A stretch of 64,000 bases of DNA from the NCBI GenBank assembly GCA_023246715.1, contig JAHFHZ010000001.1:48571-112570 (forward strand), given 5' to 3'. The translations under genes and the position numbers were made by a program. The notes under the pieces were generated by a model, which was not told the origin of the DNA, made no database searches, and saw only the letters and a list, made by a program, of their open reading frames with translations. This document shows, piece after piece, positions 10,945-40,581 of the stretch. The stretch's first letter is position 1. The number at the start of each line of letters is the position of its first letter. Origin of the DNA: Candidatus Magasanikiibacteriota bacterium. Its GTDB lineage: Bacteria > Patescibacteriota > Patescibacteriia > Magasanikbacterales > GWA2-37-8.

Positions 10945-12075
10945 ATGGAAACGCAGCAACAGAACGGATTTTGGTTTGGTAAACGGGTGTTGGTGACCGG
11001 GGGGGATGGATTTGTGGCTTCGCATTTAATTAATTATTTATCCACCCAGGGCGCTTTGCCGGTTATGACGGTTCGTCACCGCCGGCCCATGTTTACGCTT
11101 GAATTGATTAAAGATAAAAATTCCTCCGAAAAAGCAATGATGCCGGATATTGAGCAGTGCGACCTACTTGATTATGAGGCTCTGCGTCGAGTGTGCGATC
11201 GCCACCAGATTGACACCATTTTTCATTTGGCGGCATCGGCAATTGTCAGCGACGCGGCTAATTCGCCGGTGTCAACGATTGAGAACAACGTCATGGGGAC
11301 TTTGAATATATTGGAAATCGCCCGGATTAATAAAATTCCGCGCGTGTTGATTGCTTCGACTGATAAATCGTATGGTGATCACTTAGATGATTCTTTGGAA
11401 CCCTTACCGTATCGTGAAGGTTACGCGCTGCGCGGGATGGACGTGTATAGCGCTTCAAAGGTCTGTGCGGATATGTTGACACAAACGTATTCCTATCAGT
11501 TTAAAGTCCCAGCGATTGTGGTGAGATCCTCGAATATTTTTGGACCAGGTGACTTGAATTTTACTAGACTGATTCCACGTACGATTATGTGTTTGCTCGC
11601 CGGTAAAGCGCCGCTGATTAATCAAGGGAATGAAAAAGTTTTGCGTGAATACATCTATATCGATGACGTGGTTCGAGCGTATACTTTTTTGATGGAGAAG
11701 GTGAGTGAAATCTACGGCGCAGATAACTGCCACATGCCGCACCACGGATCAGCAACCTATGGGTGGACGGCGTTTAACGTTGGTAATTATACAGCTGCCG
11801 AAACTGCCGATCCGCAATCATGTGATTCAATTAAAAACGTGAGCGAAATTATTGAACTTTTGCGGAAAAAAATTACTGATATTCCGCCGGTAGTGAAAGC
11901 AAAGGCGGCTAATTTTATTGAAATCCCAGACCAATATCTGGATTGCTCAAAAATTATCAATCTCGGTTTTCGCCCCCACACCAGCTTTGCCGACGGATTA
12001 CAGCGTTCGATTGATTGGTACCGCGAAAATTATAGCTATTTAGAAAAACGCGCGACGCGTTACGTGCACGCTTGA
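10945..12075 (+). CDS. NAD-dependent epimerase/dehydratase, CDP-glucose 4,6-dehydratase-like
   Basis: FWFGKRVLVTGGDGFVASHL N-terminus (RfbG-like FWxGKRV), STDKSYGD, YSASK catalytic YxxxK. Confidence 0.55.
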   Translation: METQQQNGFWFGKRVLVTGGDGFVASHLINYLSTQGALPVMTVRHRRPMFTLELIKDKNSSEKAMMPDIEQCDLLDYEALRRVCDRHQIDTIFHLAASAIVSDAANSPVSTIENNVMGTLNILEIARINKIPRVLIASTDKSYGDHLDDSLEPLPYREGYALRGMDVYSASKVCADMLTQTYSYQFKVPAIVVRSSNIFGPGDLNFTRLIPRTIMCLLAGKAPLINQGNEKVLREYIYIDDVVRAYTFLMEKVSEIYGADNCHMPHHGSATYGWTAFNVGNYTAAETADPQSCDSIKNVSEIIELLRKKITDIPPVVKAKAANFIEIPDQYLDCSKIINLGFRPHTSFADGLQRSIDWYRENYSYLEKRATRYVHA

Positions 12076-15988: not shown

Positions 15989-16005
15989 ATCTTAATTAAG
16001 GTATT

Positions 16006-16713
16006 TTAGAGTTCGCTTTTTTTGGTGAATAAAATACGCAGCGCAAAAGGCGCGTAGCGGAAGCGTTTCCAGGTATTCATCTTGGATACCCCTTCGGTTC
16101 GTTTACGCCAAATTGAAGGAATTTCGATTGCTTTGTACCCAAGCCTCAGCGGCTTAAGCGTGGTTTCCATAGCTATCTCATGCAATTCTCCCCACCAGTG
16201 TACTTCTTTGAGCAATCGGGCGTTGAATATTTTAAACCCGTAGGTCAGGTCGTGTAGTTTGGTGAAATACAAAATGCGAAACACAATTTGGAAACCCCGA
16301 TTCAAGACATAGGTAAGCGGATCGTATTTATACACAGCACCTCCTTTGATCCAACGGCTGGCCACGGCCAGATCGTAGCCCTGTTCGGCAGCTTTAATCA
16401 TTTTTGGTACAGTTGCCAGATCCATTTCACCATCGGCATCGAGCATGAGCACATGACTGCCAGTGACTAGTGTAAACGCTTGGCGATAAGCGCGGCCAAG
16501 TCCAGGGTTTTCTTTTTGCGTGTAGTGACGCAGGAAGGGGTAGATTTTTTCCAGTTCCTGACAAATTTCAAAAGTACGCTGGCTGGAGCGCGGCGACACA
16601 ATGATGATTATTTGGTGCAAAGCGCTGCTGTTCCCCGCTACCAGAGCGTGGACTGTTTTACGCAGCACCTCTTCTTCAGACCACACCGGAATTATTACCG
16701 AGAGTTTGATCAT
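16006..16713 (-). CDS. GT2 polyprenyl-phosphate glycosyltransferase (DPM1-like)
   Basis: MIKLSVIIPVWSEEE, LMLDADGE (DxD). The start was moved to the internal ATG to avoid a long overlap with fcl. Confidence 0.7.
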   Translation of the reverse strand: MIKLSVIIPVWSEEEVLRKTVHALVAGNSSALHQIIIIVSPRSSQRTFEICQELEKIYPFLRHYTQKENPGLGRAYRQAFTLVTGSHVLMLDADGEMDLATVPKMIKAAEQGYDLAVASRWIKGGAVYKYDPLTYVLNRGFQIVFRILYFTKLHDLTYGFKIFNARLLKEVHWWGELHEIAMETTLKPLRLGYKAIEIPSIWRKRTEGVSKMNTWKRFRYAPFALRILFTKKSEL

Positions 16714-17680
16714 ATAACACTTTTTTCTTACGATCAGCTTCAATTTTATGGGCGAGGTACCAGGTAACGGTTTTTTGCAGGCCGTCACGCAGTGTTTGTC
16801 GTGGTTCCCAGCCGAGTTTTGTTTTCATTTTCGTGACGTCAAGAATTTTTTTGAGCTGGCCATCTGGTTTGCTGGTGTTCCAGGTTATCTCTCCTTGGTA
16901 AACAACTACCTCGCGAATCATTTCGGCTAACTCCCGAACGCTACAACCATTAGTGGTGGTTAAGTTCATTGGTGCGCCATCATCGTATTTTTCGGTGGCG
17001 AGCACGATCCCGTTGGCCGCATCTTCAACATACAAAAAATTGCGAGTTGGCGCTCCGGTTCCCCACACTTCCACAAATGGCATTTTGTCCATTTTAGCTT
17101 CCACAAAACGCCTGATTAGCGCACCTACGACGTGCGAACTGCCAAAATCAAAATTATCGCCCGGGCCATACATGTTGGTGGGAATTAAAAAAATAGAGTG
17201 AAATCCGTATTGTTTTTTGTAAGCCCACGATTGAACAGATAAAATACGCTTCACGATGCCGTAATCAAGAGCGGTTTCATGGGGTGGTCCTGTCCAGAGA
17301 TCTTCTTCGACTAAAATATCTTTATTCAGATATCCGGGGTAGGCGCAATCTGATCCGATGATGACAAATTTTGCTACTTTGTTAACACGCGCCGCTTCAA
17401 TTAAATTCGTACTCATCATTAGATTTTCGTAGTAGATATTTCCTGGAAATTTTTCGTGGATAGCCATTCCGCCATAAAAGGCGGCACAATGGATAATAAT
17501 GTCAAATTTTTGTTCAGCCAGGTATTTTTCGGTGGCTGCTTGACGGGTAAAATCAACTTCGCTACGGTGCGGTGTTACTATGGCGCCGGAGCGTGGCAGC
17601 AGCCGCTCTCGAATTTGGCTCCCCAGGAATCCGTTGCCACCAGTAATTAATATTTTTTTGTTTTGGAAAAAATTGGTCAT
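16676..17680 (-). CDS. fcl: GDP-L-fucose synthase (GDP-4-keto-6-deoxymannose 3,5-epimerase/4-reductase), or the ColC homologue
   Basis: KKILITGGNGFLGS; SHVVGALIRRFVEAK...VEVWGTGAPTRNFLYVEDAA matches the Fcl/GMER signature region. Confidence 0.8.
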   Translation of the reverse strand: MTNFFQNKKILITGGNGFLGSQIRERLLPRSGAIVTPHRSEVDFTRQAATEKYLAEQKFDIIIHCAAFYGGMAIHEKFPGNIYYENLMMSTNLIEAARVNKVAKFVIIGSDCAYPGYLNKDILVEEDLWTGPPHETALDYGIVKRILSVQSWAYKKQYGFHSIFLIPTNMYGPGDNFDFGSSHVVGALIRRFVEAKMDKMPFVEVWGTGAPTRNFLYVEDAANGIVLATEKYDDGAPMNLTTTNGCSVRELAEMIREVVVYQGEITWNTSKPDGQLKKILDVTKMKTKLGWEPRQTLRDGLQKTVTWYLAHKIEADRKKKVLYDQTLGNNSGVV

Positions 17681-19126: not shown

Positions 19127-19140
19127 CGATAGCATTTTCT

Positions 19141-21030: not shown

Positions 21031-21038
21031 TAGTTTGT

Positions 21039-21743: not shown

Positions 21744-21746
21744 TGT

Positions 21747-23189: not shown

Positions 23190-23195
23190 TTTTTT

Positions 23196-24968
23196 ATGAA
23201 TACCTATACTTGGAAAATTTTTTTGTTTCGGAGCATTTCGTTTTTTCGCACCCACGCCTTTGGATTGCTATTAGCGGGAGCGGTTACGTTGGCGGTGAGC
23301 CTGCCTCCGGTTATTTGGCATTTTTCGACTGATTTCCGAGGCGTGGAGATGCTTAAAACTAACACCGAAGCGCACTATGTCGCTCAAGTACAGGAGGTAT
23401 ATGATGGCCACCCACGTTTGGGCAACACTTTTTTTCAAGGTCTAAAAAATTCTGATTACTTGTTTCCGCCACTATCTCCAAATTTGGTTGCTTTATTTGG
23501 CAAGCTTATTGGGGTAGGGGCAGTCGGCGCGGTTATTGTAGGGCGTTTTTTGTTTGTATTTTTGTTGGCTTTGGCAATTTACGGTTTCGCGTATCGTCTG
23601 TTTGGCAGCACTCGTTGGGCGGCGGTGGCAGCCCCGTTCATTATTTTGGGCTATGCGTTGTTTGATCCACACACGCTCTTGCGTTTATTTTCTTTTGGCC
23701 AAGGGGCTGGCGAGGCTACCTTCATTGATTATGGTCGGCCCATTAACCCCCAAATTAGTTCATTATTCTTTTTTGGGTATCTATATTTTTTCTGGCAGTT
23801 TTTGATTGTTCCATCTCGCCGTACCTTGTTGGGAGTGGTTTCGGCCGTATTGCTGGGCGCTAGTTTTTACGTGTACTTATTTACCTGGACTTATTTATTT
23901 ACCCTCAATGGTTTTTTATTTTTATTATTTTTACTGCGTAAAGATTTTGAGAGTGTTAAACGAGTTGTGGCGGTTACTATTGCGGCCGCGGTACTTGGCA
24001 TACCGTACGCATTTAATTTGTTGGCGGCTAGCCAGAATACCTGGTATGCCGAAACGGCAGTACGTTTTGGGTTTGTGGCTTCCCACGCGCCCAATATTAG
24101 CCGGTTGGTGCTTGGTTTAATAGTCGTTTATTTATTTGCGAAGTCTTTGCTCACCACGAAACAGCGTGTTTTTTTTGGGTCATTTTTTGTAACAGCGTTG
24201 GTGGTGGCCAATGAACAAATTATAACCGGTAAATATATTTTTAATCATCACTATCACTGGTATTACACCACACCGCTCGTGGCCCTAGGCGTACTCGCGT
24301 TTTTTGCTCAATGGTTTAAGGCCCATCCCGACAAAAAGCGGGTTGAAGTTTTGGCGGTAGCGCTGTTGGTTGCATTATTTTTTGTACAGGGAATCAAGGT
24401 GCAGGTTTTGTCGTATCAAGCATCCAAGGAATCAATGGTTGATGAGCAGCGTTACGCCCCAGTGATTGATTGGTTTAACCATGAAAGCCCCCTAGACAGC
24501 GTGATTTTTGCCCCCGCCCCGTTGCTACGTTTGCTTCCCGCGGTTACGCATAATAATGTGTACTATTACGGCACTGGTATCTACACTCTTGTTTCAAATG
24601 AACGGCTCATGGATACTTATTTGGCGCAGATCTATTTACAGCGTGTGCCACAAGTGGATATCCGTCTGTATCTAGACGAGCATCAGGCAGAAATTGCGGG
24701 GTGGGTGTTTGGGTACACTTTCAGTTTTCAGCCCGGAGTATGCAGCACCTGCGTGCCAGAGGATTTTTTGGATAAGGCCGCCGAACGTTACCGACAGCTT
24801 ACTGACGCCAATTTTGCATCGTTTTTACTTAAATACCCTTTGGATTATATCGTGACCGATGAAAAAACCGACCCGGGTTGGAGAGTGGATCGGTTTGGTT
24901 TCGTTCCGGTTGCTAAATTCGGCACGCTGACTATTCATTCGGCCGCGGCTCTTCTTGCCGGGCCATAA
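23196..24968 (+). CDS. Large polytopic membrane protein (590 aa). Possibly GT-C, or an O-antigen polymerase/ligase-like protein.
   Basis: Many TM helices and a C-terminal soluble domain. No diagnostic motif recognised. Confidence 0.35.
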   Translation: MNTYTWKIFLFRSISFFRTHAFGLLLAGAVTLAVSLPPVIWHFSTDFRGVEMLKTNTEAHYVAQVQEVYDGHPRLGNTFFQGLKNSDYLFPPLSPNLVALFGKLIGVGAVGAVIVGRFLFVFLLALAIYGFAYRLFGSTRWAAVAAPFIILGYALFDPHTLLRLFSFGQGAGEATFIDYGRPINPQISSLFFFGYLYFFWQFLIVPSRRTLLGVVSAVLLGASFYVYLFTWTYLFTLNGFLFLLFLLRKDFESVKRVVAVTIAAAVLGIPYAFNLLAASQNTWYAETAVRFGFVASHAPNISRLVLGLIVVYLFAKSLLTTKQRVFFGSFFVTALVVANEQIITGKYIFNHHYHWYYTTPLVALGVLAFFAQWFKAHPDKKRVEVLAVALLVALFFVQGIKVQVLSYQASKESMVDEQRYAPVIDWFNHESPLDSVIFAPAPLLRLLPAVTHNNVYYYGTGIYTLVSNERLMDTYLAQIYLQRVPQVDIRLYLDEHQAEIAGWVFGYTFSFQPGVCSTCVPEDFLDKAAERYRQLTDANFASFLLKYPLDYIVTDEKTDPGWRVDRFGFVPVAKFGTLTIHSAAALLAGP

Positions 24969-26514
24969 TAAACATATTGTCTCGTAAATTCAGCGGAATA
25001 GAGAGTCGGTTCAGCCGGCTTTTTTGTAGGTAATTAGATATTTTTCGCCAGATTGCCTGGTGGCGAATAGTATACATAATTTGGAAGATGTAAGCCGGTT
25101 GGAATTTTTTGCCAATATTTCCGATTTCAATCACGGTGAAGTCGTGTTTATTTAAGATCATCGACAGATTTTTGGGATTGAAAAGCCGGATGTGTTCGGG
25201 TGGAATAATTAAAGGCCAAAAACGCCCTAAAATTTTGGCGACGGCGCTCCCGGCATTTGGCATATTCATTACCACAATTCCACCCGGTTTAAGTAATTTG
25301 GTTATTTTGAGTAAGGTTAAATTGGGGTCGGGCAGGTGTTCAAATACGTCCCAGAGAGTTATAACATCGAACGAATGCGGAGCGAAGACGGCATTGTCTA
25401 GGGTACCGGTTTGCACCGCTAGCCCACGGCCCCGAGCGGCCGCAGCCGCGTAGTCGGAAATTTCTACTCCGGCCACCTGCCACCCCCGCTGTTTTGCTAT
25501 GGTTAAAAAAGATCCGGTGGCAGCGCCGATGTCTAGAATACTGCCCTTGTTAGGATGTTTTGCTTCAATTTTATCTAAATATATTTGCAACGTGACATTT
25601 TCCGCTTGTTTGGTTTGCTCATAATCAACATAACCAAAGCCTTGCGTGGCGCCAGTAAAATAATCCGCGGAGTAGAGGGCGTTAAATTGATCAGGAAGTG
25701 GCGCGATAAAAATCAGCTGGCAAGCAACGCAGCGCCTTACTTTGCAGTTATTTTTGGTAAACCAGAAACGTGTATTCAGCGAGGCGCAAGCGGGACAAGG
25801 CAACGCGCCGCCTGGTTGCCAACGAATCAAATTCCAGGGCAGCAGCACTCCTTCCTGGATAATACGTAGGGAAATTTTTGATTCACCGCTGAGGCGACTT
25901 TTAAATAGGATGGGTAGTTCTACGATTCGTTTGCCGAGCTTCCAGATTTTGTATTTTAGATGCATTAAAAAGGCGTAACCAGAAGGATCGATTTCCGAAA
26001 AATTAATTTCGCGTAGCATCTTTGTGTTTAAGCACATGAATCCGCTGGTGCAATCGGTGATTGGCAGACCGGTAACCAAACGGCAATACCAGTTACCGCC
26101 ACGGCTTAAAATTTTTCGCCATAGTTCCCAACCTTCAATGCCGCCTTCGCCTGTGTAGCGGGAGCCGATTACCAGGTCGTGATTAGCGCCCAGACGAATT
26201 AATTCTGGCAGGTACGACGGGTCATGCGATCCGTCTGCATCCACGGTACAGATGTGGGTAAATCGGCCCTCGGTTAAAATTTTGCTGAAAGCATCAGAAT
26301 ATGCCCGGCCCAAGCCTTCTTTTTTAGGTCGAGAATAAAGTATTAAACGAGGAAATTGCGCGGTAAGTTCAGTTACCGCCGCTGCTGTACCATCGGGTGA
26401 GTTATCGTCGATAACCATTACCGAAACGTGGGGAACGGTAGCAAAAATTTTAGGGATCACTGCCCGGATGTTTTCTTTTTCATTATACGTGGGCAGCAGA
26501 ATTATCGTTTCCAT
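24931..26514 (-). CDS. Bifunctional GT2 glycosyltransferase (DPM1-like) / zinc-ribbon / class I SAM methyltransferase fusion
   Basis: N-terminus METIILLPTYNEKENI...DDNSPDGT. Middle CPACASL...CVACQ zinc ribbon. C-terminus ILDIGAATGSFL methyltransferase motif I. Confidence 0.7.
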   Translation of the reverse strand: METIILLPTYNEKENIRAVIPKIFATVPHVSVMVIDDNSPDGTAAAVTELTAQFPRLILYSRPKKEGLGRAYSDAFSKILTEGRFTHICTVDADGSHDPSYLPELIRLGANHDLVIGSRYTGEGGIEGWELWRKILSRGGNWYCRLVTGLPITDCTSGFMCLNTKMLREINFSEIDPSGYAFLMHLKYKIWKLGKRIVELPILFKSRLSGESKISLRIIQEGVLLPWNLIRWQPGGALPCPACASLNTRFWFTKNNCKVRRCVACQLIFIAPLPDQFNALYSADYFTGATQGFGYVDYEQTKQAENVTLQIYLDKIEAKHPNKGSILDIGAATGSFLTIAKQRGWQVAGVEISDYAAAAARGRGLAVQTGTLDNAVFAPHSFDVITLWDVFEHLPDPNLTLLKITKLLKPGGIVVMNMPNAGSAVAKILGRFWPLIIPPEHIRLFNPKNLSMILNKHDFTVIEIGNIGKKFQPAYIFQIMYTIRHQAIWRKISNYLQKSRLNRLSIPLNLRDNMFIMARQEEPRPNE

Positions 26515-26539
26515 GAGGATGCTTTATAAAAAATTTTGT

Positions 26540-28015
26540 TTAGCGAATATTTTTTGCGATGATCAGCAGTGTCGCAAATGGTCCGGTATTGAATAATCGA
26601 AAAGCCAACCAGATGCCCGTCAGGTAGGCAATACCCTGGCCTATCAGTAACATACAAAAGTGAAGAGTCGAGAGAGATAAAAGGGTTTTCCCCCAGAACA
26701 GATATGGCAGGCAGATTATCAAGCTCAGCAAGAGTGGGGTAATAATTTTTGCCAGCATATCACGGTACTTTATGAGCGTCAATTGAGTTAAAGAGCGTAA
26801 GTTTAGGCAAAAAACAGGCAACATCCCGACTAATAACGCGCCAGCCGCGCCATTGATGCCCCAGCGGACTGTGGCCGGGATAATCAGGCTGGCAGTGGTG
26901 CAAATTTTAACAATCGTGAACCCGGTTTGAGCGCGAGGTTTGCCTAACGCGTTGGAAAGAGCCAGTACCAAGTCGTTGATATTGCCAAGAAAAAAATAGA
27001 AAAGAAATATGGATAGCGCGCTAGCCATTGGCAGCCAGGGCGTACCCAGTACGATCGTGACTAGCTTGTTTCCAACAAAGAGGGTTAAGAGGCAAATTGG
27101 AATTAGAAAAAAACCGATAATATCTAAATTTTTTAAAAAACCGTCGGTAATTTTTTGTTTATCGGTTTGAATTTTGGCAAAGGCGGAAAAACTAATTTGG
27201 TTGAGCATCGGGCCTAAAAAACCAGGGGCTACCGCGGCCATGCTTTTGGCTTTACTGTAAAGCCCCAGGCTGCTTAGGGTGGTGAGGCGGGCCACACTCG
27301 TGCTCTCTAGCAAGCCGTAGAGCTGATCTAGCCAGCTTTGGCCGACGATCCATTTGCTGTAATGGAATAACTCCCGGAGAATATTGAGGTTAAAAGATAG
27401 CCGTGGACGATAGGGGTGTAAAAAGTAGGTGATAATTGTTTGAGTGAGATAATAGGCGAGTTGGGCAAAAAATAAAACCCAGTATGATGGCCAGAGTAAC
27501 GCTCCCGCGATACTGACGATAATATAGGCAATTTCACGAACCAAATTACGGATAAAGATTTTTTTGAAATCTAACTCTTTGAATAAATAATTTTCTCCGA
27601 TGTTGCCTAAATTTAGGATAAGCATGAAAATCCCGCCCAAGCTGATGGCTAAGATAGCCTGCTCCCCATGCAGGAAACCGGCTAGCCAAGGCCCAACGGC
27701 AAGCACCACCACGAAAATAGCCAGGCCTTTGAGCACGTGGATTGTCCAGAGCGGGTTGAGAAATTTTTTAATGTCCCCCTCTTTTTGAATGAGCGCGCTG
27801 GCAAAACCGGTATCGGCGGTGGCATCTAAAAAGCGGGGCAGCAGAATAACCAGTCCCATTATGCCAAAATCCTCCGGCTTCAAGAGTCTAGCCAAAATAA
27901 AAAACGAAACCAAACCAAGGCATTTTTGGATCACATATCCGAGTGAAAGCCATTTACCGCTCTGAATTGATTTTTTTAGCACGCCTTCGGGGGGCGCAAT
28001 AGCGCTTGATTGCAT
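26540..28015 (-). CDS. wzx: Wzx-like oligosaccharide flippase (MOP superfamily polysaccharide biosynthesis protein)
   Basis: About 12-14 TM helices with PST-family topology. The start was taken at an internal ATG, leaving a 75-bp divergent intergenic region. Confidence 0.6.
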   Translation of the reverse strand: MQSSAIAPPEGVLKKSIQSGKWLSLGYVIQKCLGLVSFFILARLLKPEDFGIMGLVILLPRFLDATADTGFASALIQKEGDIKKFLNPLWTIHVLKGLAIFVVVLAVGPWLAGFLHGEQAILAISLGGIFMLILNLGNIGENYLFKELDFKKIFIRNLVREIAYIIVSIAGALLWPSYWVLFFAQLAYYLTQTIITYFLHPYRPRLSFNLNILRELFHYSKWIVGQSWLDQLYGLLESTSVARLTTLSSLGLYSKAKSMAAVAPGFLGPMLNQISFSAFAKIQTDKQKITDGFLKNLDIIGFFLIPICLLTLFVGNKLVTIVLGTPWLPMASALSIFLFYFFLGNINDLVLALSNALGKPRAQTGFTIVKICTTASLIIPATVRWGINGAAGALLVGMLPVFCLNLRSLTQLTLIKYRDMLAKIITPLLLSLIICLPYLFWGKTLLSLSTLHFCMLLIGQGIAYLTGIWLAFRLFNTGPFATLLIIAKNIR

Positions 28016-28090
28016 TTTTTCTTTTCCTATATTAGTATGTTTAAGTATAGTCGGTACCCCCCGTAACGTCAATTTTAGTTTTACTACGGT

Positions 28091-29335
28091 ATGGATAATT
28101 CTTCAGCTAATACTACACTGGAAAAATACCCGCAACAAATCGGTGTAGGCACTTGCATTATTAGTGAAAGGGCTCGCCGGTATGTTAATGATGTGCTAGA
28201 CAGCGCGCGGTTGACCTATGGGCCATTTTCGCAGGCTTTTGAAAAGAAATTTGCCGAAGCACATAATTGTAAATTCGCCGTGTTGATGAATAGCGGTACG
28301 AGCGCGTTACGCGTGAGTATCGCGGCTTTAAAAGAAAAGCATGGTTGGCAAGATGGCGACGAAATTTTGATTCCCGCGATTACCTTTATTTGTGATGTCA
28401 ACGTTATTACTTCGAATGGTTTGACGCCGGTGTTTGTTGATGTTGATCCGCTCCGATTCAGCATGGACCCAGCATTGGTGGCAAGCAAGCTAACCAGCCG
28501 CAGTCGCGCGATTATGCCAACGCATCTGTGTGGGCTTCCGGCCAACATGGAGGCGCTGATGAAGTTGGCCTGTGAGCGAGATTTACGGGTGATTGAAGAT
28601 GCTTGCGAAGCGGCTTTTGCCCGTTATAATGATAAACCAGTAGGTAGTTTTGGCGATATTGGCTGTTACTCTACCTACCAGGCCCATATTGTGGCTACTG
28701 GGGTGGGGGGCCTGGCGCTGACTAATGACCCCGAAACGGCGGTTTTGCTACGCAGCCTTGCTAATCATGGCCGGGACGGTATTTATATCCAGATTGACGA
28801 CGATAAAGGCAAAACCAAGCAAGAGCTGGAGCAGATTGTGAGCAAGCGGTTTACTTTTATCCGGCCAGGATTTAGCTTTCGAGTCACCGAGCTTGAAGCT
28901 GCTATTGGGCTGGCCCAATTGGAAGACGGTATGGAACCGGATTTATTGCGCCGCCAGCAAAACGCCGCGGCGCTTACCAAACGGCTAGAACGCCATGCCA
29001 GTATTTTACAATTGCCAACTGTGCCCGCTGACTCATCACATGTCTTTATGATGTACCCGTTGGTGGTTAGGCCGGGCTCAGGCGTGAGCCGCGATGAGTT
29101 GGTTAATTTTTTAGAAGAGTATAATATTGAAACTCGCAAGCTTTTGCCTATTTTAGACCAGCCCTTCATCATTAAGCGCTATGGTGATTTGGCGGCACGC
29201 TACCCCGTGGCGGATTCTTTGAACAAAGGAGCTTTTTATATCGGTTCCCACTCAGGAATAGGGGAGGAAGAAATCGAATACATCGGTAAGGTGTTTGACA
29301 TTTTTTTTGCCAGCCGAAAATTGGCAACAACATGA
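28091..29335 (+). CDS. DegT/DnrJ/EryC1/StrS-family PLP enzyme with His in place of the Schiff-base Lys; ColD/E1-like sugar 3-dehydratase candidate
   Basis: Conserved EDAC...VGSFGDIGCYSTYQAHIVATGVGG aligns to the SF(H/Y)PTK..GEGG block, with H199 at the Lys position. Confidence 0.75.
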   Translation: MDNSSANTTLEKYPQQIGVGTCIISERARRYVNDVLDSARLTYGPFSQAFEKKFAEAHNCKFAVLMNSGTSALRVSIAALKEKHGWQDGDEILIPAITFICDVNVITSNGLTPVFVDVDPLRFSMDPALVASKLTSRSRAIMPTHLCGLPANMEALMKLACERDLRVIEDACEAAFARYNDKPVGSFGDIGCYSTYQAHIVATGVGGLALTNDPETAVLLRSLANHGRDGIYIQIDDDKGKTKQELEQIVSKRFTFIRPGFSFRVTELEAAIGLAQLEDGMEPDLLRRQQNAAALTKRLERHASILQLPTVPADSSHVFMMYPLVVRPGSGVSRDELVNFLEEYNIETRKLLPILDQPFIIKRYGDLAARYPVADSLNKGAFYIGSHSGIGEEEIEYIGKVFDIFFASRKLATT

Positions 29336-29344
29336 GCGGTATTT

Positions 29345-30280
29345 ATGGAAGAAAAATCGCGATTGCAACATAAAAAAATTTTGATTACTGGGGGAACCGG
29401 TTTTATTGGTAGTCATTTGGCTCGCCTGCTTAGCCCTACTAACGAGGTATGGGTAGCGGGACGCAGTGGCGAACAACCAAATTCGGCAGTACAATTTTTT
29501 AAGGGTGATATTCGTGAACAGGTTTTTTTTGAATTTGTCCGCAATGAAAATTTTGACGTTATTTTTCATTTGGCTGGTAACGCCAACCAGGCAAAGAGTT
29601 TAGAGGATCCCCGTTATGATTTAGAACACAATCTGCTGGCGACGTTTAATTTACTTGAAGTTTTGCGGCAGCTGCAAAAACCACCGCGTTTAATCAACGC
29701 TTCGTCGGTGACGGTGTATGGAGATAACGACGACGCTGTTCTCAATGAAGACACCTCGGTGCTTTTGCCGATTGTTAACTACGGGGCTTCAAAATTGGCG
29801 GCTGAACGATATTTGTACGCGTACGCACGACAATACGGGTTGCCAGCGATTACTCTGCGGCTTTTTTCTACCTATGGACCCGGGTTGCGTCGTCAAATGG
29901 TTTATGACTTTATCCGCAAGCTTTCGGTTAACCAGGATAGGTTGGAAATTATTGGAACTGGCAATGAGGCGCGAGACCTTACGTTTATTGTTGATCAGGT
30001 AAGTAACATTGTCCGGGTCGCCGAACAGGCGGATTTTAAAGGTGAAGCCTATAATTTGGCTTCGGGTTCTTTATATTCTACCCGTCAGGTAGCCGAATCT
30101 GTGGCTCGAGCGCTCGGCCTAACGCCGGAATTTATCTATACTGAAAAAGCACGAGTTTTTGACGCTCCGAGTTGGCTGGCAGATGTAAATAAAATTAAAA
30201 AATTTGGAGCCTCGACCCCGACTAAACTTGACCATGGCGTTGAACAGACCGTGCGTTGGTTTAAAAATGTAGGTTCCTGA
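29345..30280 (+). CDS. NAD-dependent sugar epimerase/dehydratase (SDR)
   Basis: KKILITGGTGFIGSHLARLL, YGASKLAAE (YxxxK). Confidence 0.7.
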   Translation: MEEKSRLQHKKILITGGTGFIGSHLARLLSPTNEVWVAGRSGEQPNSAVQFFKGDIREQVFFEFVRNENFDVIFHLAGNANQAKSLEDPRYDLEHNLLATFNLLEVLRQLQKPPRLINASSVTVYGDNDDAVLNEDTSVLLPIVNYGASKLAAERYLYAYARQYGLPAITLRLFSTYGPGLRRQMVYDFIRKLSVNQDRLEIIGTGNEARDLTFIVDQVSNIVRVAEQADFKGEAYNLASGSLYSTRQVAESVARALGLTPEFIYTEKARVFDAPSWLADVNKIKKFGASTPTKLDHGVEQTVRWFKNVGS

Positions 30281-30296: not shown

Positions 30297-31217
30297 ATGT
30301 CACAGCCTAAAACAATTCTTTTTGGCGGCAGTGGTTTCCTGGGCCCAACTATTTTGGAGAAGTACCCTGATATTGTTTCGATTGGCCGACACGCTCCGCC
30401 AGATTATGTCGGAAACCAGCATATCAATTTGCCAGACTTCGATGATTTAAGCGTCCTAGACAATTTTGATTTTGATAAGGTTATTTTTTTGGTCGGCAGC
30501 TCTAACCACCATCTGATAAATAATCATGCCACCATGGGCCTTGATTATAATGTGTACCCGCTTAAGAAGGCGTTGCATTATTTTGCCAAACGCCAGTTAA
30601 AAAAATTTATTTGTTTTACCACTATTTTGTTATACGATGCCGAAAGAATGACCTTTCCGGTGGGCGAGGAGCAGCCGATCAACCCGTATATCAATGAGTA
30701 TGTTTTTAGCAAATATCTTTCGGAGGAATTGGTACGTTTTTATGCCGAGAAAGTGCCAACTATTACGATCCGTTTTAGTAATATTTACGGCCCGACCAAG
30801 CTGATTCGCCCTGACGTGGTGCCGACCCTGATTCAAAAGGTGCTTTCTCCTAACCCGGTGACTGTTTGGAATACTAAGCCGATTAGGGATTTTTTGTATC
30901 TTGAAGACGCGGCCGAAGCGATTGTGCGGCTACTCGACACAGATTACACCGGGCCCGTCAATTTGGGAACAGGAGTAACGGTTAGTATCGGCCGGATTGC
31001 CGAAATTTTAGAAGAATTATCGGGTAAAAAAATTACCAATCTGGATCAAGCGGTCAACGGGCCAATGTTTTTTTGCTGTGATATCAGCAAGGTGACTAAA
31101 CTGACCGACTGGAAACCGGCGCACACGATCGAAGAGGGATTAAAAAAAACGTATGAACGAATGAAGGGCTGGGCGGATGAGTGTCGGTGGTGGGAACAAC
31201 CCAGTTCTAAATTTTAA
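30297..31217 (+). CDS. NAD(P)-dependent epimerase/reductase-like SDR (atypical)
   Basis: TILFGGSGFLGP Rossmann motif, YVFSK (YxxxK). Confidence 0.5.
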   Translation: MSQPKTILFGGSGFLGPTILEKYPDIVSIGRHAPPDYVGNQHINLPDFDDLSVLDNFDFDKVIFLVGSSNHHLINNHATMGLDYNVYPLKKALHYFAKRQLKKFICFTTILLYDAERMTFPVGEEQPINPYINEYVFSKYLSEELVRFYAEKVPTITIRFSNIYGPTKLIRPDVVPTLIQKVLSPNPVTVWNTKPIRDFLYLEDAAEAIVRLLDTDYTGPVNLGTGVTVSIGRIAEILEELSGKKITNLDQAVNGPMFFCCDISKVTKLTDWKPAHTIEEGLKKTYERMKGWADECRWWEQPSSKF

Positions 31218-31219: not shown

Positions 31220-32326
31220 TTGAAAATGTCTATGAAGCGAATTTTGTTTCTGACCGAGACAATGAATCCGACTTCTGGTTGGGGCAGGATTGCTGACGAA
31301 ATCAGCCGGCGGCTGCCTGACCATGGTTTTGAGCCGGTGGTGCTAACGGAAGACAGCTCGGGATACTTAGGCAAACCATTGTTGCGTAATTCACTGGCCT
31401 CGCTTAAATCAACGCTACTTAATAGTTGGGGCGTTCGCCCCTACGCCAAGGATGCTGTCTTGGTACACGCGCTTGATGCGTATCCGTATGGAATTATTGG
31501 CGCTTTGGCGACGCTGGGCACGCGGGTGCCGCTCGTTATGACTACGGTTGGCACCTACGCCATTATGCCGCTCGAGAATAAAAAAATCCGACCGTTTATG
31601 CTGTGGGCTTTTCGGCGAGCAAAAATGCTTTTTCCGATTGTTAATTTTACCATTGCAGAAATAGCCAAACGTGCTTCGGGGCTGCCTCCCCAAAAACGAG
31701 TGTTGCTCGGGGTAGACCCGAGCCGCTTCCAGCTCGCTCCAATCACGCCAGGCGCAGCAGCGCCAATTTTGTTGAGCGTGGGCGCTTTAAAAAAGCACAA
31801 AGGGTATCATTACGTGATACCGGCTTTGGCAATCGTGAAAAAAACCTGCCCTTTGATACGATATTGTATCGTCGGTGATACTTCGGATACGGCGTATATT
31901 GATTTTTTGAAAGGGGAAATTAAAAAATACGGCGTTGAACAGAACGTGCAAATTTTAGGTAAAATTCCGGAAGGCGAAGTATTGGATCTGTACGGGCGCT
32001 GTTTGGCGTTTGTGTTAATTCCAGAAAATCATCCGACTAATTTTGCGGGTTTCCACCTTACGTATCTGGAAGCAAATGCCATGGGCAAACCGGTCATTGG
32101 AGCGAAAGGATACGGATCGGAAGAAGCCGTCCAGGAAGGAAGAACTGGTTTTTTAATCACGCCGGAAAAGCCCGAAGAAATCGCGGCAGTTATCGGCCGC
32201 CTGATTGTTGAACCGGTTTTGCGAGCTGAGCTGCGTGAGTATTCGCGAGCTTGGGCCGAAGAACTGACGTGGGATAAAACGGTCGCCCAATATGCCGCGT
32301 ATTACCGCGCGATACTTGGAGAATAA
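31220..32326 (+). CDS. Glycosyltransferase, GT4-like
   Basis: ...FHLTYLEANAMGKPVIGAKGYGSEEAV. Confidence 0.65.
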   Translation: MKMSMKRILFLTETMNPTSGWGRIADEISRRLPDHGFEPVVLTEDSSGYLGKPLLRNSLASLKSTLLNSWGVRPYAKDAVLVHALDAYPYGIIGALATLGTRVPLVMTTVGTYAIMPLENKKIRPFMLWAFRRAKMLFPIVNFTIAEIAKRASGLPPQKRVLLGVDPSRFQLAPITPGAAAPILLSVGALKKHKGYHYVIPALAIVKKTCPLIRYCIVGDTSDTAYIDFLKGEIKKYGVEQNVQILGKIPEGEVLDLYGRCLAFVLIPENHPTNFAGFHLTYLEANAMGKPVIGAKGYGSEEAVQEGRTGFLITPEKPEEIAAVIGRLIVEPVLRAELREYSRAWAEELTWDKTVAQYAAYYRAILGE

Positions 32327-33173
32327 TTTTTTAGAAGCAATATTTTATTTAAAACAGCCTGTCGAGGCGAAAGTATACTACCAGCCTATGCCCGAAGCGC
32401 CCGTACAACCCAAGCAGAATGACTGGAATTTTCAATGGGAGAATTTTTACGATGATTCTTTGTTTTTGTTTAAGGAATGGATTTTTCCGCATACTTTGGA
32501 AACCTTCCGGGGAAAGAGCGTGGTTGATTGCGGGTGCGGCGGAGGGCAACATATTAATTTTGTCGCCCCCTTTGCCCGTCGAATTATTGGCATTGACTTG
32601 AACACCACCGCAATCGCCCGTGAACACACCGAACAGCACAGCATTGTTTCGTTTGTGGAAGGGGATTTGGCCAGCGTGAGCCTGCCCGAACAGCATGACG
32701 TGGTTTATTGCATTGGCGTTTTACAACATACCACCAACCCGGACGCCACGTTCGCGAATATAAAAAAAATGGTCGCGTCGGGGGGGCGTTTAATGATCTG
32801 GTGTTATTCCAAAGAGGGTAACTGGCCTAATTGGCTTATTTTGGAACCCTTGAAACGTTGCTTTATCCTTAAATTACCTAAACGAGCATTACTGTATTTG
32901 GCTACGGCGCTGACCGCGCTTTTGTACCCTGTTATTTATACGCTGTATTTATTGCCGCTCAGGTTTTTGCCTTATTACGAATATTTTGGTAACTGGCGTA
33001 AATTATCGTTTGGACGGAATCGATTAAATGTCTTTGACAAACTGAACGCGCCCATCACTAATTTTATTACGCGAGTTCAAGTAGAACGTTGGTTTAATCA
33101 GGCTGAATTTTCGGATATCTTTATTGATCAGTATAAAGGAGTGAGTTGGCGTGCTTCGGGTGTTAAATTGTAA
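32292..33173 (+). CDS. Class I SAM-dependent methyltransferase (alternative start at 32388)
   Basis: VVDCGCGGGQH motif I. Ends in ...LMIWCY. Confidence 0.6.
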   Translation: MPRITARYLENNFLEAIFYLKQPVEAKVYYQPMPEAPVQPKQNDWNFQWENFYDDSLFLFKEWIFPHTLETFRGKSVVDCGCGGGQHINFVAPFARRIIGIDLNTTAIAREHTEQHSIVSFVEGDLASVSLPEQHDVVYCIGVLQHTTNPDATFANIKKMVASGGRLMIWCYSKEGNWPNWLILEPLKRCFILKLPKRALLYLATALTALLYPVIYTLYLLPLRFLPYYEYFGNWRKLSFGRNRLNVFDKLNAPITNFITRVQVERWFNQAEFSDIFIDQYKGVSWRASGVKL

Positions 33174-33177
33174 AAAT

Positions 33178-34629
33178 ATGCTTGCGGCATTTCGGAATTT
33201 CTATCAAGCCCAGCGCGTGCCAATTATTTTGTTCGTGACGGCATTTGTTTTTCACGCGGCCATGTCGGCTTATTTATACTATCGTTTTGGCGATTCGGTT
33301 TTATGGTTTCAAAATGAAGACGCGCAAGGGTACGTGGAATTGGCGCGTAACGTGCTTACCGGGCGAGGTTTTACCCATGACGGCGCTGCGCTCGCGATTC
33401 GTACCCCGGCGTGGCCGTTGATGCTATCTTTAGGTTTGCTTTTGCCCGGCTCCGCAACAGCAGCAATTTTATTTTTGCAGGTTGTATTGCTGGGGGCTTC
33501 GGGTATTATAATTTATAAAATAGGTGAGTTATTTTTTTCAAAATTTGCCGGGTTAATCGCCTCGACACTCTATATTGTTGAACCTTACTTAGCGATGAAT
33601 ACGGCTTTGGCAACCACTGAAGTTTTTTTTAATTTTGGTTTATTGATAACGGTGTATTGTTTTGGACGTTGGTATCTTCGGCGCGACTCCCAGGCTTGGC
33701 TGGCTGCTTCGGGGCTTTGGCTGGGACTTTGTATTCTTATTCGGCCAGTGGCCTTGTATCTGCCGTTTTTATTTTTGATTTTTATCATCATTCGCCTCCT
33801 GTATTTTAAAAAGAGCACTCTGTCATTACTGGTTAGTTTGTTTATCCTAAGCGCCACTACCACATTGGTGGTGGCGCCATGGTCGATTCGCCAGTATATC
33901 CGTTTTGGTACTCCGCGCATTACCAATATTGACGCGATGTTATTATACTTTCGGGTGGCGCCGCTGGTTATCGGCGCTGAACAAGGCATTAGCTATAACG
34001 CGGCGATTCAGCAGTTGCACGGCGAATTGGAGCGTTCGGTTGAGCTTTATAATCCTGATGATTTAAATGCTAATTTTGTTCATTATGAATTCATGAGCGC
34101 AAGAGTGGCGGAATTGGTTCGTCAACGCCCAGATGTGGTAGCAAAAAGTTATTTGGCTTCAATGGTACCGGCCCTGTTTGGTACGGGTTACGAATATATG
34201 TTGGAAGAAGTGCTTGGTTTAGAGCGCGCCACGCAACGCCCCAGCTACTCCGCGCTGTTAGCTCGGGGAGATTTCGCTGCTTATTTTAGGGCTCTTCGCC
34301 AAATCGATATTTTTCAAGCTGTTTTATTAACTGGCGCGCTGTTGTGGATGGCTGCTTACGTATTTATTGTTTATTACGTAACCCGCAGGTTTGTTTGGAG
34401 AGAACGTTTTTTGAGTTTAGTGCTGCTCGGAGGCCTGCTTGGTTATTTTGTTTTTTTTGCGTTGGGCCCTGCCAGCCACGCCCGTTATCGCTTACCTACA
34501 TTTCCGTGGTGGTTTCTACTTATTGGCGCCAGCCTTGATTTTATTAAGCAAAAGCGTATACTAGGCTCACGCAAAGAGGCTGCTTCTTTTGGCCTTAATA
34601 AGCCTTTTATCCCCGGCCAGACCCCTTAA
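33178..34629 (+). CDS. Polytopic GT-C membrane glycosyltransferase (ArnT/PMT-like)
   Basis: Loop-1 motif ...DAQGYVELARNVLTGRGF and about 12 TM helices. Immediately followed by a DPM1-like GT2. Confidence 0.6.
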   Translation: MLAAFRNFYQAQRVPIILFVTAFVFHAAMSAYLYYRFGDSVLWFQNEDAQGYVELARNVLTGRGFTHDGAALAIRTPAWPLMLSLGLLLPGSATAAILFLQVVLLGASGIIIYKIGELFFSKFAGLIASTLYIVEPYLAMNTALATTEVFFNFGLLITVYCFGRWYLRRDSQAWLAASGLWLGLCILIRPVALYLPFLFLIFIIIRLLYFKKSTLSLLVSLFILSATTTLVVAPWSIRQYIRFGTPRITNIDAMLLYFRVAPLVIGAEQGISYNAAIQQLHGELERSVELYNPDDLNANFVHYEFMSARVAELVRQRPDVVAKSYLASMVPALFGTGYEYMLEEVLGLERATQRPSYSALLARGDFAAYFRALRQIDIFQAVLLTGALLWMAAYVFIVYYVTRRFVWRERFLSLVLLGGLLGYFVFFALGPASHARYRLPTFPWWFLLIGASLDFIKQKRILGSRKEAASFGLNKPFIPGQTP

Positions 34630-34634
34630 TTTAT

Positions 34635-35486
34635 ATGCAAAAAATTTCAGTTATTCTGCCTGCTTACAATGAAGAATTGGGGATTGCTAAAGTTCTTTCT
34701 CGGCTTAAGGAAGTTTTGGCTAACGCCCCAGATTCGGAAATACTGGTTGTTAATGATGGGTCAACAGACGCCACGGCCAGCATTGCCATGGCCCATGGAG
34801 CGCGGGTAATTTCTAATCCAACCAACATGGGTTATGGATTTTCGTTGAAGCGTGGTTTTGTGGCCGCGGTTAACGAATGCGTGGTGATTACCGATGCGGA
34901 TGGCACGTATCCAATTGAGCGTTTGCCGGATTTAGTCGCTGAATTTGATAAGGGCTTGGATTTGGTGGTGGGCGCGCGCCAGGGTGCCAATTATTGGTCT
35001 AGTTGGACCAAGGGTTTTGCTCGTTTGTGCTTTAAATGGATGAGTCAATTTGTCGTGGGCAAGCGGATTCCCGATATTAATTCGGGTTTTAGAGTCATCC
35101 GCCGCAGCAAAATTGTGCCGGTTTTGAACGATCTTTCTAACGCTTTTTCATTTACCACCTCAATGACCTTGATTTTTTTCTTGAAGCATTATTTCATCCG
35201 TTATTTGCCAATTAGTTACGAACAAAGACAAGGTCGGTCTAAAGTGCACTACTTCCGCGATACATTAATCACCTTGCAGATTCTGGCCGATATTATCGCT
35301 CGCTATAACCCAATAAAATTATTTTTATTGCTGGCGTTGTTTCCTTTCGCGCTGATGTTGGTTTGTTTGGTTTTCGCGTTGGTTTGGGGGGTGTGGCTCT
35401 GGTTGCCACTGGCCTTTTTGGCCGGCTTTGGCGCGTTGTTGATTGTCGCGCTTGGTTTTATTGCCACAATTTTTAGACGCAATTAG
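34635..35486 (+). CDS. GT2 polyprenyl-phosphate glycosyltransferase (DPM1/GtrB-like) with C-terminal TM helices
   Basis: MQKISVILPAYNEELGI, VNDGSTDAT, ITDADGTYP. Two C-terminal TM helices as in GtrB. Confidence 0.75.
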   Translation: MQKISVILPAYNEELGIAKVLSRLKEVLANAPDSEILVVNDGSTDATASIAMAHGARVISNPTNMGYGFSLKRGFVAAVNECVVITDADGTYPIERLPDLVAEFDKGLDLVVGARQGANYWSSWTKGFARLCFKWMSQFVVGKRIPDINSGFRVIRRSKIVPVLNDLSNAFSFTTSMTLIFFLKHYFIRYLPISYEQRQGRSKVHYFRDTLITLQILADIIARYNPIKLFLLLALFPFALMLVCLVFALVWGVWLWLPLAFLAGFGALLIVALGFIATIFRRN

Positions 35487-35488: not shown

Positions 35489-35866
35489 ATGGCTGGTTCG
35501 AAGGCGCGAGCGCAGCTTGGGGTGGGAGTTGATATCGAAGAAGTTACCCGATTTACAAAACGCTCTTCCCGGGCGTTTAAATTATTTTTAAAACGTTTGT
35601 TTACTGATCAAGAATTGACCTACTGTTTCGAGCGAACTCGGACAGCGGAGCATTTAGCGGCCCGTTTCGCCGCCAAAGAAGCAATTATTAAAGCGCTGGC
35701 AATACTTGGTTTTGCCCCTCCTGATTATCAGCAGATTGAAATTAGGATGAATGGAAAGTTGCCGACGGTTTGCCTGTATGATAGTTCTTTAAAGCCGTAT
35801 CGTGTTTTAATCAGTTTGTCACATACTCGTACCTTGGCTATGGCTTTTGCAGTAATTACTGCCTAA
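35489..35866 (+). CDS. acpS: Holo-ACP synthase (4'-phosphopantetheinyl transferase)
   Basis: GVGVDIEEVTRF...FAAKEAIIKAL, 125 aa. Confidence 0.75.
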   Translation: MAGSKARAQLGVGVDIEEVTRFTKRSSRAFKLFLKRLFTDQELTYCFERTRTAEHLAARFAAKEAIIKALAILGFAPPDYQQIEIRMNGKLPTVCLYDSSLKPYRVLISLSHTRTLAMAFAVITA

Positions 35867-35870
35867 TCAT

Positions 35871-37682: not shown

Positions 37683-37689
37683 TTGCAGT

Positions 37690-37923: not shown

Positions 37924-37925
37924 GT

Positions 37926-38327: not shown

Positions 38328-38339
38328 TTTTTTGAATAT

Positions 38340-39074: not shown

Positions 39075-39100
39075 CTCATTTTGTCACGGGCTTATTTGTT

Positions 39101-40579: not shown

Positions 40580-40581
40580 CT

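Follow-up and report, generated by a model that had tools for sequence, protein, structure and literature searches.

3,6-Dideoxyhexoses are strong antigenic determinants in enterobacterial O-antigens, and the only characterised lineages of pyridoxamine 5′-phosphate (PMP)-dependent sugar 3-dehydratases are, to our knowledge, ColD, E1, and SpnQ. The substitution of Lys by His is the defining difference of the sugar 3-dehydratases from aminotransferases (PMC8987622). E1 and SpnQ bind a [2Fe-2S] cluster via four Cys residues, whereas ColD has no cluster; in ColD, the 3,4-ene intermediate is resolved by hydrolysis and PMP is regenerated from glutamate (PMC8987622). The characterised ColD enzymes are mutually 62-67% identical (PMC10440746). 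Here we analysed a His-type protein of the DegT family, termed T, which is encoded at positions 28091-29335 (forward strand) of a 64,000-nucleotide stretch of contig JAHFHZ010000001.1 from a Candidatus Magasanikiibacteriota bacterium; this whole stretch is called the window. Our results make it highly probable that T is a sugar 3-dehydratase, and likely, in our view, that its substrate is GDP-4-keto-6-deoxymannose and its chemistry independent of Fe-S clusters. To a similar degree we favour the view that T is an Fe-S-free ColD-like 3-dehydratase that belongs to a lineage apart from ColD and E1/SpnQ and feeds 3,6-dideoxyhexose synthesis. Its probable role would then be in the synthesis of a rare 3,6-dideoxy sugar destined for the cell surface.

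The active site of T and its conservation in the family

T matched the Pfam model DegT_DnrJ_EryC1 (PF01041) over residues 24-400 (E 2e-83), and this full-length match to the hidden Markov model together with the fold places it in the DegT/DnrJ/EryC1/StrS family. A preliminary description of the window had reported a Lys-to-His exchange at the pyridoxal 5′-phosphate (PLP) site and had proposed to check it by alignment to ColD of E. coli O55 and E1 of Yersinia. The quoted block, CYSTYQAHIVATGVGG, is present at residues 192-207, and the alignments bore the exchange out. In phmmer/HMMER alignments to PDB chains, H199 stands opposite the Schiff-base residue K186 of Caulobacter GDP-perosamine synthase (Per; 3bn1, 'sffgnKiittgegg') and opposite H220 of Yersinia E1 (3bcx, 'sfypaHhitmgegg'); 3bb8, the H220K mutant of E1, has Lys in the same column. 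As ColD reference we used colD (wbdK) of E. coli O55:H7 CB9615 (NC_013941; L085, 1701-2867, reverse strand), an authentic colD which NCBI's Prokaryotic Genome Annotation Pipeline merely names 'DegT/DnrJ/EryC1/StrS family aminotransferase'. In a four-way MAFFT alignment of T, ColD, E1, and Per, H199 is opposite ColD H188 ('SSFYSHHIATMEGG'). T therefore carries His199 in the column of the internal-aldimine Lys of aminotransferases. The residues beside the His differ, with A-H-I and GVGG in T and S/A-H-H and GEGG in ColD/E1. Val205, which takes the place of the Glu of the DegT 'GEGG' motif (window 28700-28711), is kept in at least 90% of the T-clade members, and Glu or Asp is kept at this position by ColD, E1, Per, and 14 of the 15 Lys-type paralogues compared.

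T, ColD, and E1 have in common an insertion of ~20-25 residues which is not present in perosamine synthase. The aligned loop of E1, 'GRDCYCAPGCDNTCKK', contains the four [2Fe-2S] Cys residues, whereas that of T, 'GRDGIYIQIDDDKGKTK', contains zero Cys and hence no [2Fe-2S] motif; the loop of ColD is likewise without Cys. As T does not have the four-Cys loop of E1, ColD-like chemistry is the better fit.

BLASTP comparisons of T gave 29.7% identity (164 bits) with ColD, 30.9% (186 bits) with E1, and 32.8% (196 bits) with Per, and ColD and E1 are 31.6% identical to each other (186 bits). The best full-length single-stretch match in the PDB was E1 (phmmer, 176 bits), and the best NCBIfam model was that of RfbH (E1; NF011936) with 230.3 bits versus a cut-off of 423; no curated model captures the T clade. 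The AlphaFold2 model of T (pLDDT 91.4, pTM 0.89) matched DegT-family structures at template modelling (TM) scores of 0.8-0.9, the nearest folds being GDP-perosamine synthase (TM 0.93, normalised to the target), followed by E1 and ColD. Two of these three enzymes use GDP-4-keto-6-deoxymannose. In a neighbour-joining tree of 34 sequences with few outgroups (360 columns, 100 bootstraps), support was 100/100 for the T clade, 92/100 for all His types together, and 92/100 for ColD+E1 as sister group of T. T thus has the predicted catalytic His and, in common with ColD and E1, the derived insertion and the membership in a His-type clade, in agreement with the earlier proposal that it is a 3-dehydratase of the ColD/E1 kind. 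Judged by its sequence, T is not a ColD orthologue but a member of a distinct lineage, large and so far uncharacterised, whose signature is A-H-I, GVGG, and NHGRD..IDDD. The diversity of the His-type group goes beyond the three characterised lineages: a related locus (L017, 5650-6885, forward strand) encodes another His-type DegT paralogue (SFYGSHMITAGGSGG), distinct from T and without a Cys loop, which clusters with ColD+E1 in the tree.

A search of ~5.8 billion proteins gave 2,680 matches at E ≤ 1e-20, the best 120 of which were listed. The collection contained no protein identical to T, and the best public match was only 65% identical. All of the best 120 homologues (51-65% identity) possess the His (121/121 counting T), which is embedded in the motif C[FY]STYxAH[ILV]xxTG[VI]GG. 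An exhaustive phmmer search was made against 1.84 billion representatives of 50%-identity clusters, and among the best 150, which were inspected, the column of H199 held 127 His, 21 Lys, 1 Gln, and 1 Cys. About 100 of these 150 representatives are of the T type, with GVGG, the loop 'NHGRD..IDDD', and zero loop Cys. The more distant ones are His types with a four-Cys loop (E1/SpnQ-like), ColD-like proteins, and then Lys-type proteins resembling perosamine synthase; true ColD-like representatives (SFYFSHH..IEGG, HGW.R) appeared only at 33-35% identity to T. The family-wide presence of the His argues that it is neither a chance substitution nor a sequencing error.

An alignment of 42 diverse family members from bacteria and archaea had 68 invariant columns, including S68-G69-T70-S71, D170, E173, S194, H199, and N225-H226-G227-R228-D229, and no invariant Lys was among them. 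A catalytic Lys provided from a shifted position, which the preliminary description had named as the finding that would speak against a dehydratase, was therefore rejected; the only well-conserved Lys is K81 (≥ 90%), located in a four-residue insertion after the GTSAL helix that is not present in perosamine synthase. The absence of both the Schiff-base Lys and the GEGG Glu would also be expected of a dead DegT paralogue, that is, a pseudo-enzyme or scaffold which lost the Lys. Given that the 68 columns invariant across bacteria and archaea include the cofactor-binding SGTS, the Asp of EDxCE, S194, and H199, and given the wide species distribution, the conserved operons and enzyme fusions described below, and the confident AlphaFold2 model, we consider this extremely improbable.

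The names given to homologues are 'DegT family aminotransferase', 'perosamine synthetase', or 'dTDP-4-amino-4,6-dideoxygalactose transaminase', others being unnamed. Because the His is invariant, the transaminase labels on members of the T clade are very likely wrong. T could still be an aminotransferase in which His199 or another residue mediates the 1,3-prototropic shift, leading to a perosamine-like GDP-4-amino-4,6-dideoxy sugar. Such an activity would agree with these public labels, with perosamine synthase being closest in sequence and fold, and with the ability of the His-type enzyme SpnQ to transaminate without its reductase (PMC8987622), but under comparable conditions neither ColD nor E1 transaminates (PMC8987622). 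Moreover, the family has no invariant Lys, the loop of T is of the dehydratase type, T clusters with ColD+E1 in the tree, its partners of the short-chain dehydrogenase/reductase (SDR) family are of the ketoreductase type (Fcl-, RmlD-, and SDR2-like) and would be needless for an amino-sugar pathway, and N-acyltransferases were not recurrent among the neighbours of T in the related loci. An aminotransferase is improbable on this evidence, and a 3-dehydratase remains the favoured assignment.

With each GTDB species represented by a single genome, a scan found relatives of T in at least 411 species, mostly of the candidate phyla radiation (CPR)/Patescibacteria and the DPANN archaea. The other carriers are Elusimicrobia, Planctomycetes (including the cultured Limnoglobus roseus), Nitrospirales, and uncultured Gammaproteobacteria, and the last group contains the closest relatives of T (59-64% identity). 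The assignment of the T clade, if correct, leads to the prediction that many uncultured bacteria and archaea, CPR and DPANN members among them, display 3,6-dideoxyhexoses on their surfaces; a literature search found no paper on colitose or tyvelose in CPR or DPANN organisms. With A-H-I and GVGG, the clade would also offer natural variation next to the catalytic His that bears on the choice between dehydration and transamination.

Gene neighbourhoods and the predicted substrate

To characterise the genomic context, open reading frames (ORFs) were called, clustered, and classified in 59 related loci having at least two genes on either side of T. The commonest neighbour was an orthologue of Gmd (GDP-mannose 4,6-dehydratase), which adjoins T in 21/59 loci and lies within three genes in 31/59, always in the same orientation as T; these orthologues are 45-66% identical to E. 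coli Gmd. Fcl/ColC-like SDRs, 32-37% identical to both ColC and Fcl, adjoin T in 11 loci (13 within three genes). RmlD-like reductases and genes similar to SDR2, one of the two SDR genes following T in the window, are adjacent in three loci each and are found within three genes in 10 and seven loci, respectively. An RfbF-like cytidylyltransferase never adjoins T and occurs within three genes in five loci. Gmd-T-SDR2-GT2 operons, in which the third gene is SDR2-like and GT2 is a glycosyltransferase of family 2, are present in L054, L064, L072, and L083, including Peregrinibacteria and Gracilibacteria, with an extra small ORF after T in L072. In L075, an SDR2 orthologue (63% identical to that of the window), an SDR1-like::GT2 fusion, Gmd, and T follow each other on one strand, SDR1 being the other SDR of the window operon; an SDR1-like::GT2 fusion adjoins T in L079 as well. 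Natural fusions of T itself were found with SDRs of the Epimerase family (SDR::T) in four cluster representatives (P0130, P0134, P0136, and P0140), with GT2 domains (T::GT2) in P0076, P0128, and P0129, with a GT2-methyltransferase in P0127 (GT2-methyltransferase::T), and with a family 4 glycosyltransferase (GT4) in P0131 (T::GT4).

Based on the Gmd neighbours and the SDR::T fusions, GDP-4-keto-6-deoxy-D-mannose is the most likely substrate of the T family, following the gene logic of gmd-colD-colC. The preliminary description had left the choice between a GDP-colitose and a CDP-3,6-dideoxyhexose branch; its GDP part, the ColD-like one, is favoured by the Gmd neighbourhoods, whereas its CDP/E1 part did not hold. 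T as an E1-type CDP-4-keto-6-deoxy-D-glucose 3-dehydrase, with an E3-like reductase as its partner in a pathway of the CDP-abequose, -paratose, or -tyvelose type, would be in line with RfbH as the best NCBIfam match, with E1 as the best full-length PDB match, with an SDR of the window that carries an S-T-D-K motif and resembles CDP-glucose 4,6-dehydratase, and with the five loci having an RfbF-like gene nearby. However, the RfbH score is far below its cut-off, all four [2Fe-2S] loop Cys are missing in T and in the T clade, and RfbF-like genes are rare near the homologues. In L025 and L052, where CDP-pathway genes are present, a classical, Cys-loop-bearing E1 is encoded in addition to T, which is part of a Gmd-Fcl operon. 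Among the ORFs of the window with at least 150 codons, most of which were scanned, no RfbF-like or other sugar-1-phosphate nucleotidyltransferase was present and no E3-like reductase was recognised, though no search was aimed at E3. The missing Cys motif, the low NCBIfam score, and the genes around T led us to reject the E1/CDP pathway for T, and we regard it as very improbable.

Some probability must be kept for a ColD-like Fe-S-free 3-dehydratase acting on a different 4-keto sugar nucleotide in this organism, since Gmd is not adjacent to T in the subclade of the window. Candidates are the product of the S-T-D-K SDR, GDP-6-deoxy-4-keto-heptose as in Campylobacter jejuni HS:5, and a UDP-4-keto sugar in an Arn-like arrangement. 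ColD homologues accept GDP-heptose substrates (PMC10440746), the combination of a DegT enzyme, a small GT2, and a PMT_2 protein mirrors ArnB/ArnC/ArnT, and in L017 T is flanked by an RfbF-like gene and SDR pair as well as by Gmd and Fcl. Against this stand the 68 invariant columns, which are common to the Gmd-linked members and the T of the window, the similarity of the associated GT2s to the GDP-sugar-using dolichyl-phosphate mannose synthase (DPMS), and the presence of the orthologue of the window's SDR2 in a Gmd-T operon; moreover, no GDP-heptose pathway genes were found in the window or among the recurrent neighbours. A different substrate is thus unlikely, if less so than an aminotransferase activity.

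Several points nevertheless weigh against an Fe-S-free dehydratase acting on GDP-4-keto-6-deoxymannose. T is slightly nearer to the aminotransferase Per than to ColD by BLASTP, the simple neighbour-joining tree with its few outgroups is modest evidence, and the A-H-I and GVGG motifs mean that the catalytic details of T may differ from those of ColD/E1. Gmd is 24 kb away from T in the window, and in the four closest relatives (L001, L004-L006) it is not adjacent and was not seen within 10 kb. Another 4-keto substrate could come from the S-T-D-K SDR, sequence does not allow stereochemical roles to be given to SDR1 and SDR2, and the function of the T clade as a whole rests on sequence-based inference.

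A cluster of B12-binding radical-SAM proteins of ~490 amino acids (c5; e.g., L063, L020, and L069) was found at most four genes away from T in eight loci. These proteins may C-methylate or otherwise modify a deoxysugar.

The operon of the window and a possible lipid-linked route

In the window, T heads a tight run of genes on the same strand which continues with SDR1, SDR2, a GT4, a methyltransferase, a PMT_2 membrane glycosyltransferase of the GT-C type, and a small GT2 (Table 1); the gaps after T and after SDR1 are 9 and 16 bp. The preliminary description had considered the genes to be dispersed. This applies to Gmd and to the Fcl/ColC-like SDR, which is part of another module, but not to T and its two SDRs. 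All three context genes named there, coding for Gmd, the Fcl/ColC-like SDR, and the CDP-glucose 4,6-dehydratase-like SDR, are present in the window.

Table 1. Positions of T, its sequence elements, and selected genes in the window.
Feature	Position	Strand	Remarks
T, 414 amino acids, predicted PMP-dependent NDP-4-keto-6-deoxyhexose 3-dehydratase without Fe-S cluster	28091..29335	+	ATG start, TGA stop, intact
Active-site block CYSTYQAHIVATGVGG, residues 192-207	28664..28711	+	Family signature ST[YF]xAH...TG[VI]GG; Val for the usual Glu of GEGG
Codon CAT, His199, site of the internal-aldimine Lys in aminotransferases	28685..28687	+	Alignments to PDB chains and ColD
Insertion loop NHGRDGIYIQIDDDKGKTKQELEQIVSKRFTF after HG(R/W)D	28763..28858	+	Position common to ColD and E1; absent from perosamine synthase; no Cys
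SDR1, GalE-like extended SDR	29345..30280	+	GxxGxxG, SSVTVYG, YGASK; without the Asp-Glu of 4,6-dehydratases
SDR2, divergent extended SDR, candidate 4-ketoreductase or epimerase	30297..31217	+	YVFSK; 63%-identical orthologue in the L075 operon
GT4-family glycosyltransferase	31220..32326	+	Same operon as T; T::GT4 fusion P0131 elsewhere
SAM-dependent methyltransferase	32292..33173	+	Same operon as T
PMT_2 (ArnT/PMT-like GT-C) membrane glycosyltransferase	33151..34629	+	~8 transmembrane-like segments
Small GT2 with C-terminal transmembrane-like segments	34635..35486	+	Closest solved relatives ArnC, GtrB, DPMS
GT2::methyltransferase fusion, divergent, two genes upstream of T	24931..26514	-	GT2 domain DPMS-like
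Wzx-like polysaccharide flippase, divergent from T	26540..28072	-	Syntenic in L001 and L004
Gmd, GDP-mannose 4,6-dehydratase, predicted substrate supplier, 337 amino acids	3811..4824	+	24 kb upstream of T
Fcl/ColC-like SDR in a separate GT2+PMT_2 module	16676..17680	-	37% identical to E. coli Fcl, 32% to ColC
SDR with S-T-D-K dehydratase-like motif, resembling CDP-glucose 4,6-dehydratase	10945..12075		Motif

The Gmd protein of the window shares 45% identity with that of E. coli and scored 405.4 bits with TIGR01472, slightly short of the cut-off of 415. It resembles short-form Gmd, and automated pipelines could leave off the specific name. The solved relatives of SDR1 include GalE-type epimerases and CDP-tyvelose 2-epimerase; SDR1 may epimerise the 3-deoxy intermediate or reduce its 4-keto group. 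A role of SDR1 as a second 4,6-dehydratase was rejected, as it contains SSVTVYG rather than S-T-D-E or S-T-D-K and its best matches are GalE-like epimerases. Because of the T-SDR operon and the arrangement in L075, the adjacent SDRs are more likely to be the finishing enzymes than the distant Fcl-like SDR, which is a less parsimonious alternative. For the flippase gene, the listed TTG start leaves only 18 bp to the start codon of T; the true start is probably a Met 19 codons downstream, giving a divergent promoter region of ~75 bp.

According to the proposed mechanism, Gmd (3811) would convert GDP-mannose to GDP-4-keto-6-deoxy-D-mannose, which would form a ketimine with the enzyme-bound PMP of T. 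His199 would take the C4′ proton and aid the expulsion of the 3-OH, as in ColD. With no [2Fe-2S] site available, the 3,4-ene intermediate would be hydrolysed to GDP-4-keto-3,6-dideoxymannose, ammonia, and PLP, and PMP would be regenerated with L-glutamate. SDR1 and SDR2 would then epimerise and/or reduce C4 to yield a GDP-3,6-dideoxyhexose. A DPMS/ArnC-like GT2 (34635 or 24931) might load this sugar onto polyprenyl phosphate, and the PMT_2 protein (33151) might use the lipid-linked sugar outside the membrane.

The last two steps are suggested by the glycosyltransferases associated with T. In 29/59 loci, T has a small GT2 or a GT2-GT-C fusion no more than three genes away; 45/59 loci have Gmd or such a GT2, and GtrA/DPMS-TM proteins adjoin T in three. 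The closest solved relatives of the two partner GT2s of the window are polyprenyl-phosphate GT2s. That encoded at 34635 matched ArnC (1.3e-18), GtrB (1.1e-14), and DPMS (2.3e-12), and the GT2 domain of the divergent fusion matched Pyrococcus DPMS 5mlz (E 4.9e-29), as did the GT2 of the Gmd-T-SDR2-GT2 operon in L054 (E 7e-38). The divergent fusion is also the best match in the window of the GT2s that adjoin T in L001, L004-L006, L054, and L072. No solved relative of the PMT_2 protein at 33151 was detectable by sequence. DPMS is a GDP-mannose:dolichyl-phosphate mannosyltransferase, and the GDP-linked donor of the enzymes that the T-associated GT2s resemble fits the assignment of T to a GDP sugar. 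Taken together, the GT2 neighbours, their likeness to DPMS, the fusions, and the GtrA/DPMS-TM and PMT_2 genes suggest a lipid-linked route in which, much as in the Arn and Dol-P-Man systems, polyprenyl phosphate would receive the 3,6-dideoxyhexose and the sugar would be transferred on the outside of the membrane. We tentatively propose, with more doubt than confidence, that the T clade is an ancient Fe-S-free lineage whose product is delivered via a DPMS-like GT2, polyprenyl phosphate, and a GT-C enzyme and not via Leloir enzymes. We know of no polyprenyl-phosphate 3,6-dideoxyhexose described so far, though no search was aimed at one. While the T clade is a useful, not startling, extension of a known kind of enzyme, the idea of a lipid-linked 3,6-dideoxyhexose is more novel, and lipid-phosphate-linked delivery, as suggested by the recurrent coupling and fusion with DPMS-like GT2, GtrA-like, and GT-C proteins, would be new glycobiology if true.

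The window contains four pairs of small ArnC/GtrB/DPMS-like GT2 and PMT_2 genes, each beside its own sugar genes: 8918+9603 (S-T-D-K SDR, AsnB, and methyltransferase), 16006+14648 (both on the reverse strand; Fcl-like SDR), 20982+21747 (GT4 and AsnB), and 34635+33151 (T and two SDRs). A fifth PMT_2 gene is found at 6041, and this gene and the pairs lie in the regions 6041-23189 and 33151-35486. This looks like several parallel modules for lipid-phosphate-sugar decoration in one island; if the lipid-linked route is true, the module of T would be one of four or five parallel GT2+GT-C modules.

The order GT4/AsnB/GT2(-GT-C)/10-transmembrane protein/PMT_2/T/GT2 is syntenic between the window (18005-29335) and L001, L004, L005, and L006, with 42-66% protein identity. 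L001, L004, and L005 belong to metagenome-assembled genomes of uncultured Gammaproteobacteria and L006 to one of Ca. Magasanikiibacteriota (CPR), which suggests inter-phylum transfer or a binning error. The block includes a 590-amino-acid protein (23196-24968, forward strand; cluster c13) with ~10 transmembrane-like segments and no Pfam or NCBIfam match, which is conserved at 43-46% beside a GT2-GT-C gene in the closest related loci and may be an unrecognised GT-C or polymerase. Downstream of the T operon, the region 35489-41784 encodes a phosphopantetheinyl transferase (35489), an FkbH-like HAD/GNAT protein (35871), a FabG-like reductase (38340), a DltB-like MBOAT protein (39101), and an AlgX-like SGNH protein (40522), and looks like a module that acylates polysaccharide with a carrier-protein-borne unit. 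A nonulosonic-acid-type cluster at 38340-62725 has two NeuB homologues (54429 and 60883), HisH/HisF-like pairs (53036/53661 and 56754/57361), a CMP-type cytidylyltransferase (51034), a PseB-like SDR (44383), and an RmlD-like SDR (45369). It also includes a formyltransferase, a PIG-L deacetylase, a carbamoyltransferase, a GNAT protein, and a GFO/IDH/MocA oxidoreductase, a content reminiscent of Legionella-type lipopolysaccharide loci.

Comparison with known systems

The closest known systems are ColD/WbdK of E. coli O55:H7 and Y. pseudotuberculosis (PDB 2gms, 3b8x), with which we group the GDP-heptose C3-dehydratases of C. jejuni HS:5/HS:11. ColD and T have in common the DegT fold, the exchange of the Schiff-base Lys for His, and an insertion loop after HG(W/R)x that is free of Fe-S Cys. 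The predicted substrate of T and its predicted chemistry, with PMP recycled by glutamate, are those of ColD, and in the order gmd-colD-colC the gene stands, as do many T homologues, beside Gmd and an Fcl-like SDR. In contrast to a nested position within ColD, T forms a sister clade of ColD+E1. The motifs A-H-I/TGVGG and NHGRD...IDDD of T correspond to S-H-H/MEGG and AHGWTRN in ColD, and the C-terminal 'HVFMMY' of T is perosamine synthase-like, whereas ColD and E1 have 'SWFGF'. The partners differ as well, T being often accompanied by RmlD-like or SDR2-like reductases and DPMS-like GT2s, ColD by ColC and a Leloir fucosyl-type transferase.

E1 (RfbH/DdhC/AscC; Yersinia, PDB 3bcx), the CDP-6-deoxy-L-threo-D-glycero-4-hexulose 3-dehydrase, resembles T in having Ala before the His (PAH in E1, QAH in T) and a loop in the same place that begins with GRD. 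It differs by the four loop Cys, none of which is present in T, and by a CDP context (RfbF/RfbG), whereas the context of the T family is GDP (Gmd). Per of Caulobacter crescentus (3bn1/3dr4) has the highest identity to T (32.8%) and acts on the substrate predicted for T, but it is a transaminase which has kept the catalytic Lys186 and GEGG and in which the 20-amino-acid loop is absent.

In its gene logic, the T operon equals ArnB-ArnC-ArnT, which involves undecaprenyl-phosphate-4-amino-4-deoxy-L-arabinose, and Dol-P-Man synthase/PMT. The common scheme, putative for T, comprises a DegT enzyme acting on a 4-keto sugar nucleotide, a small GT2 loading polyprenyl phosphate, and a GT-C (PMT_2) transferase. 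Unlike T, ArnB is a Lys-type transaminase acting on a UDP-pentose, whereas T is of the His type and its context is that of a GDP-6-deoxyhexose.

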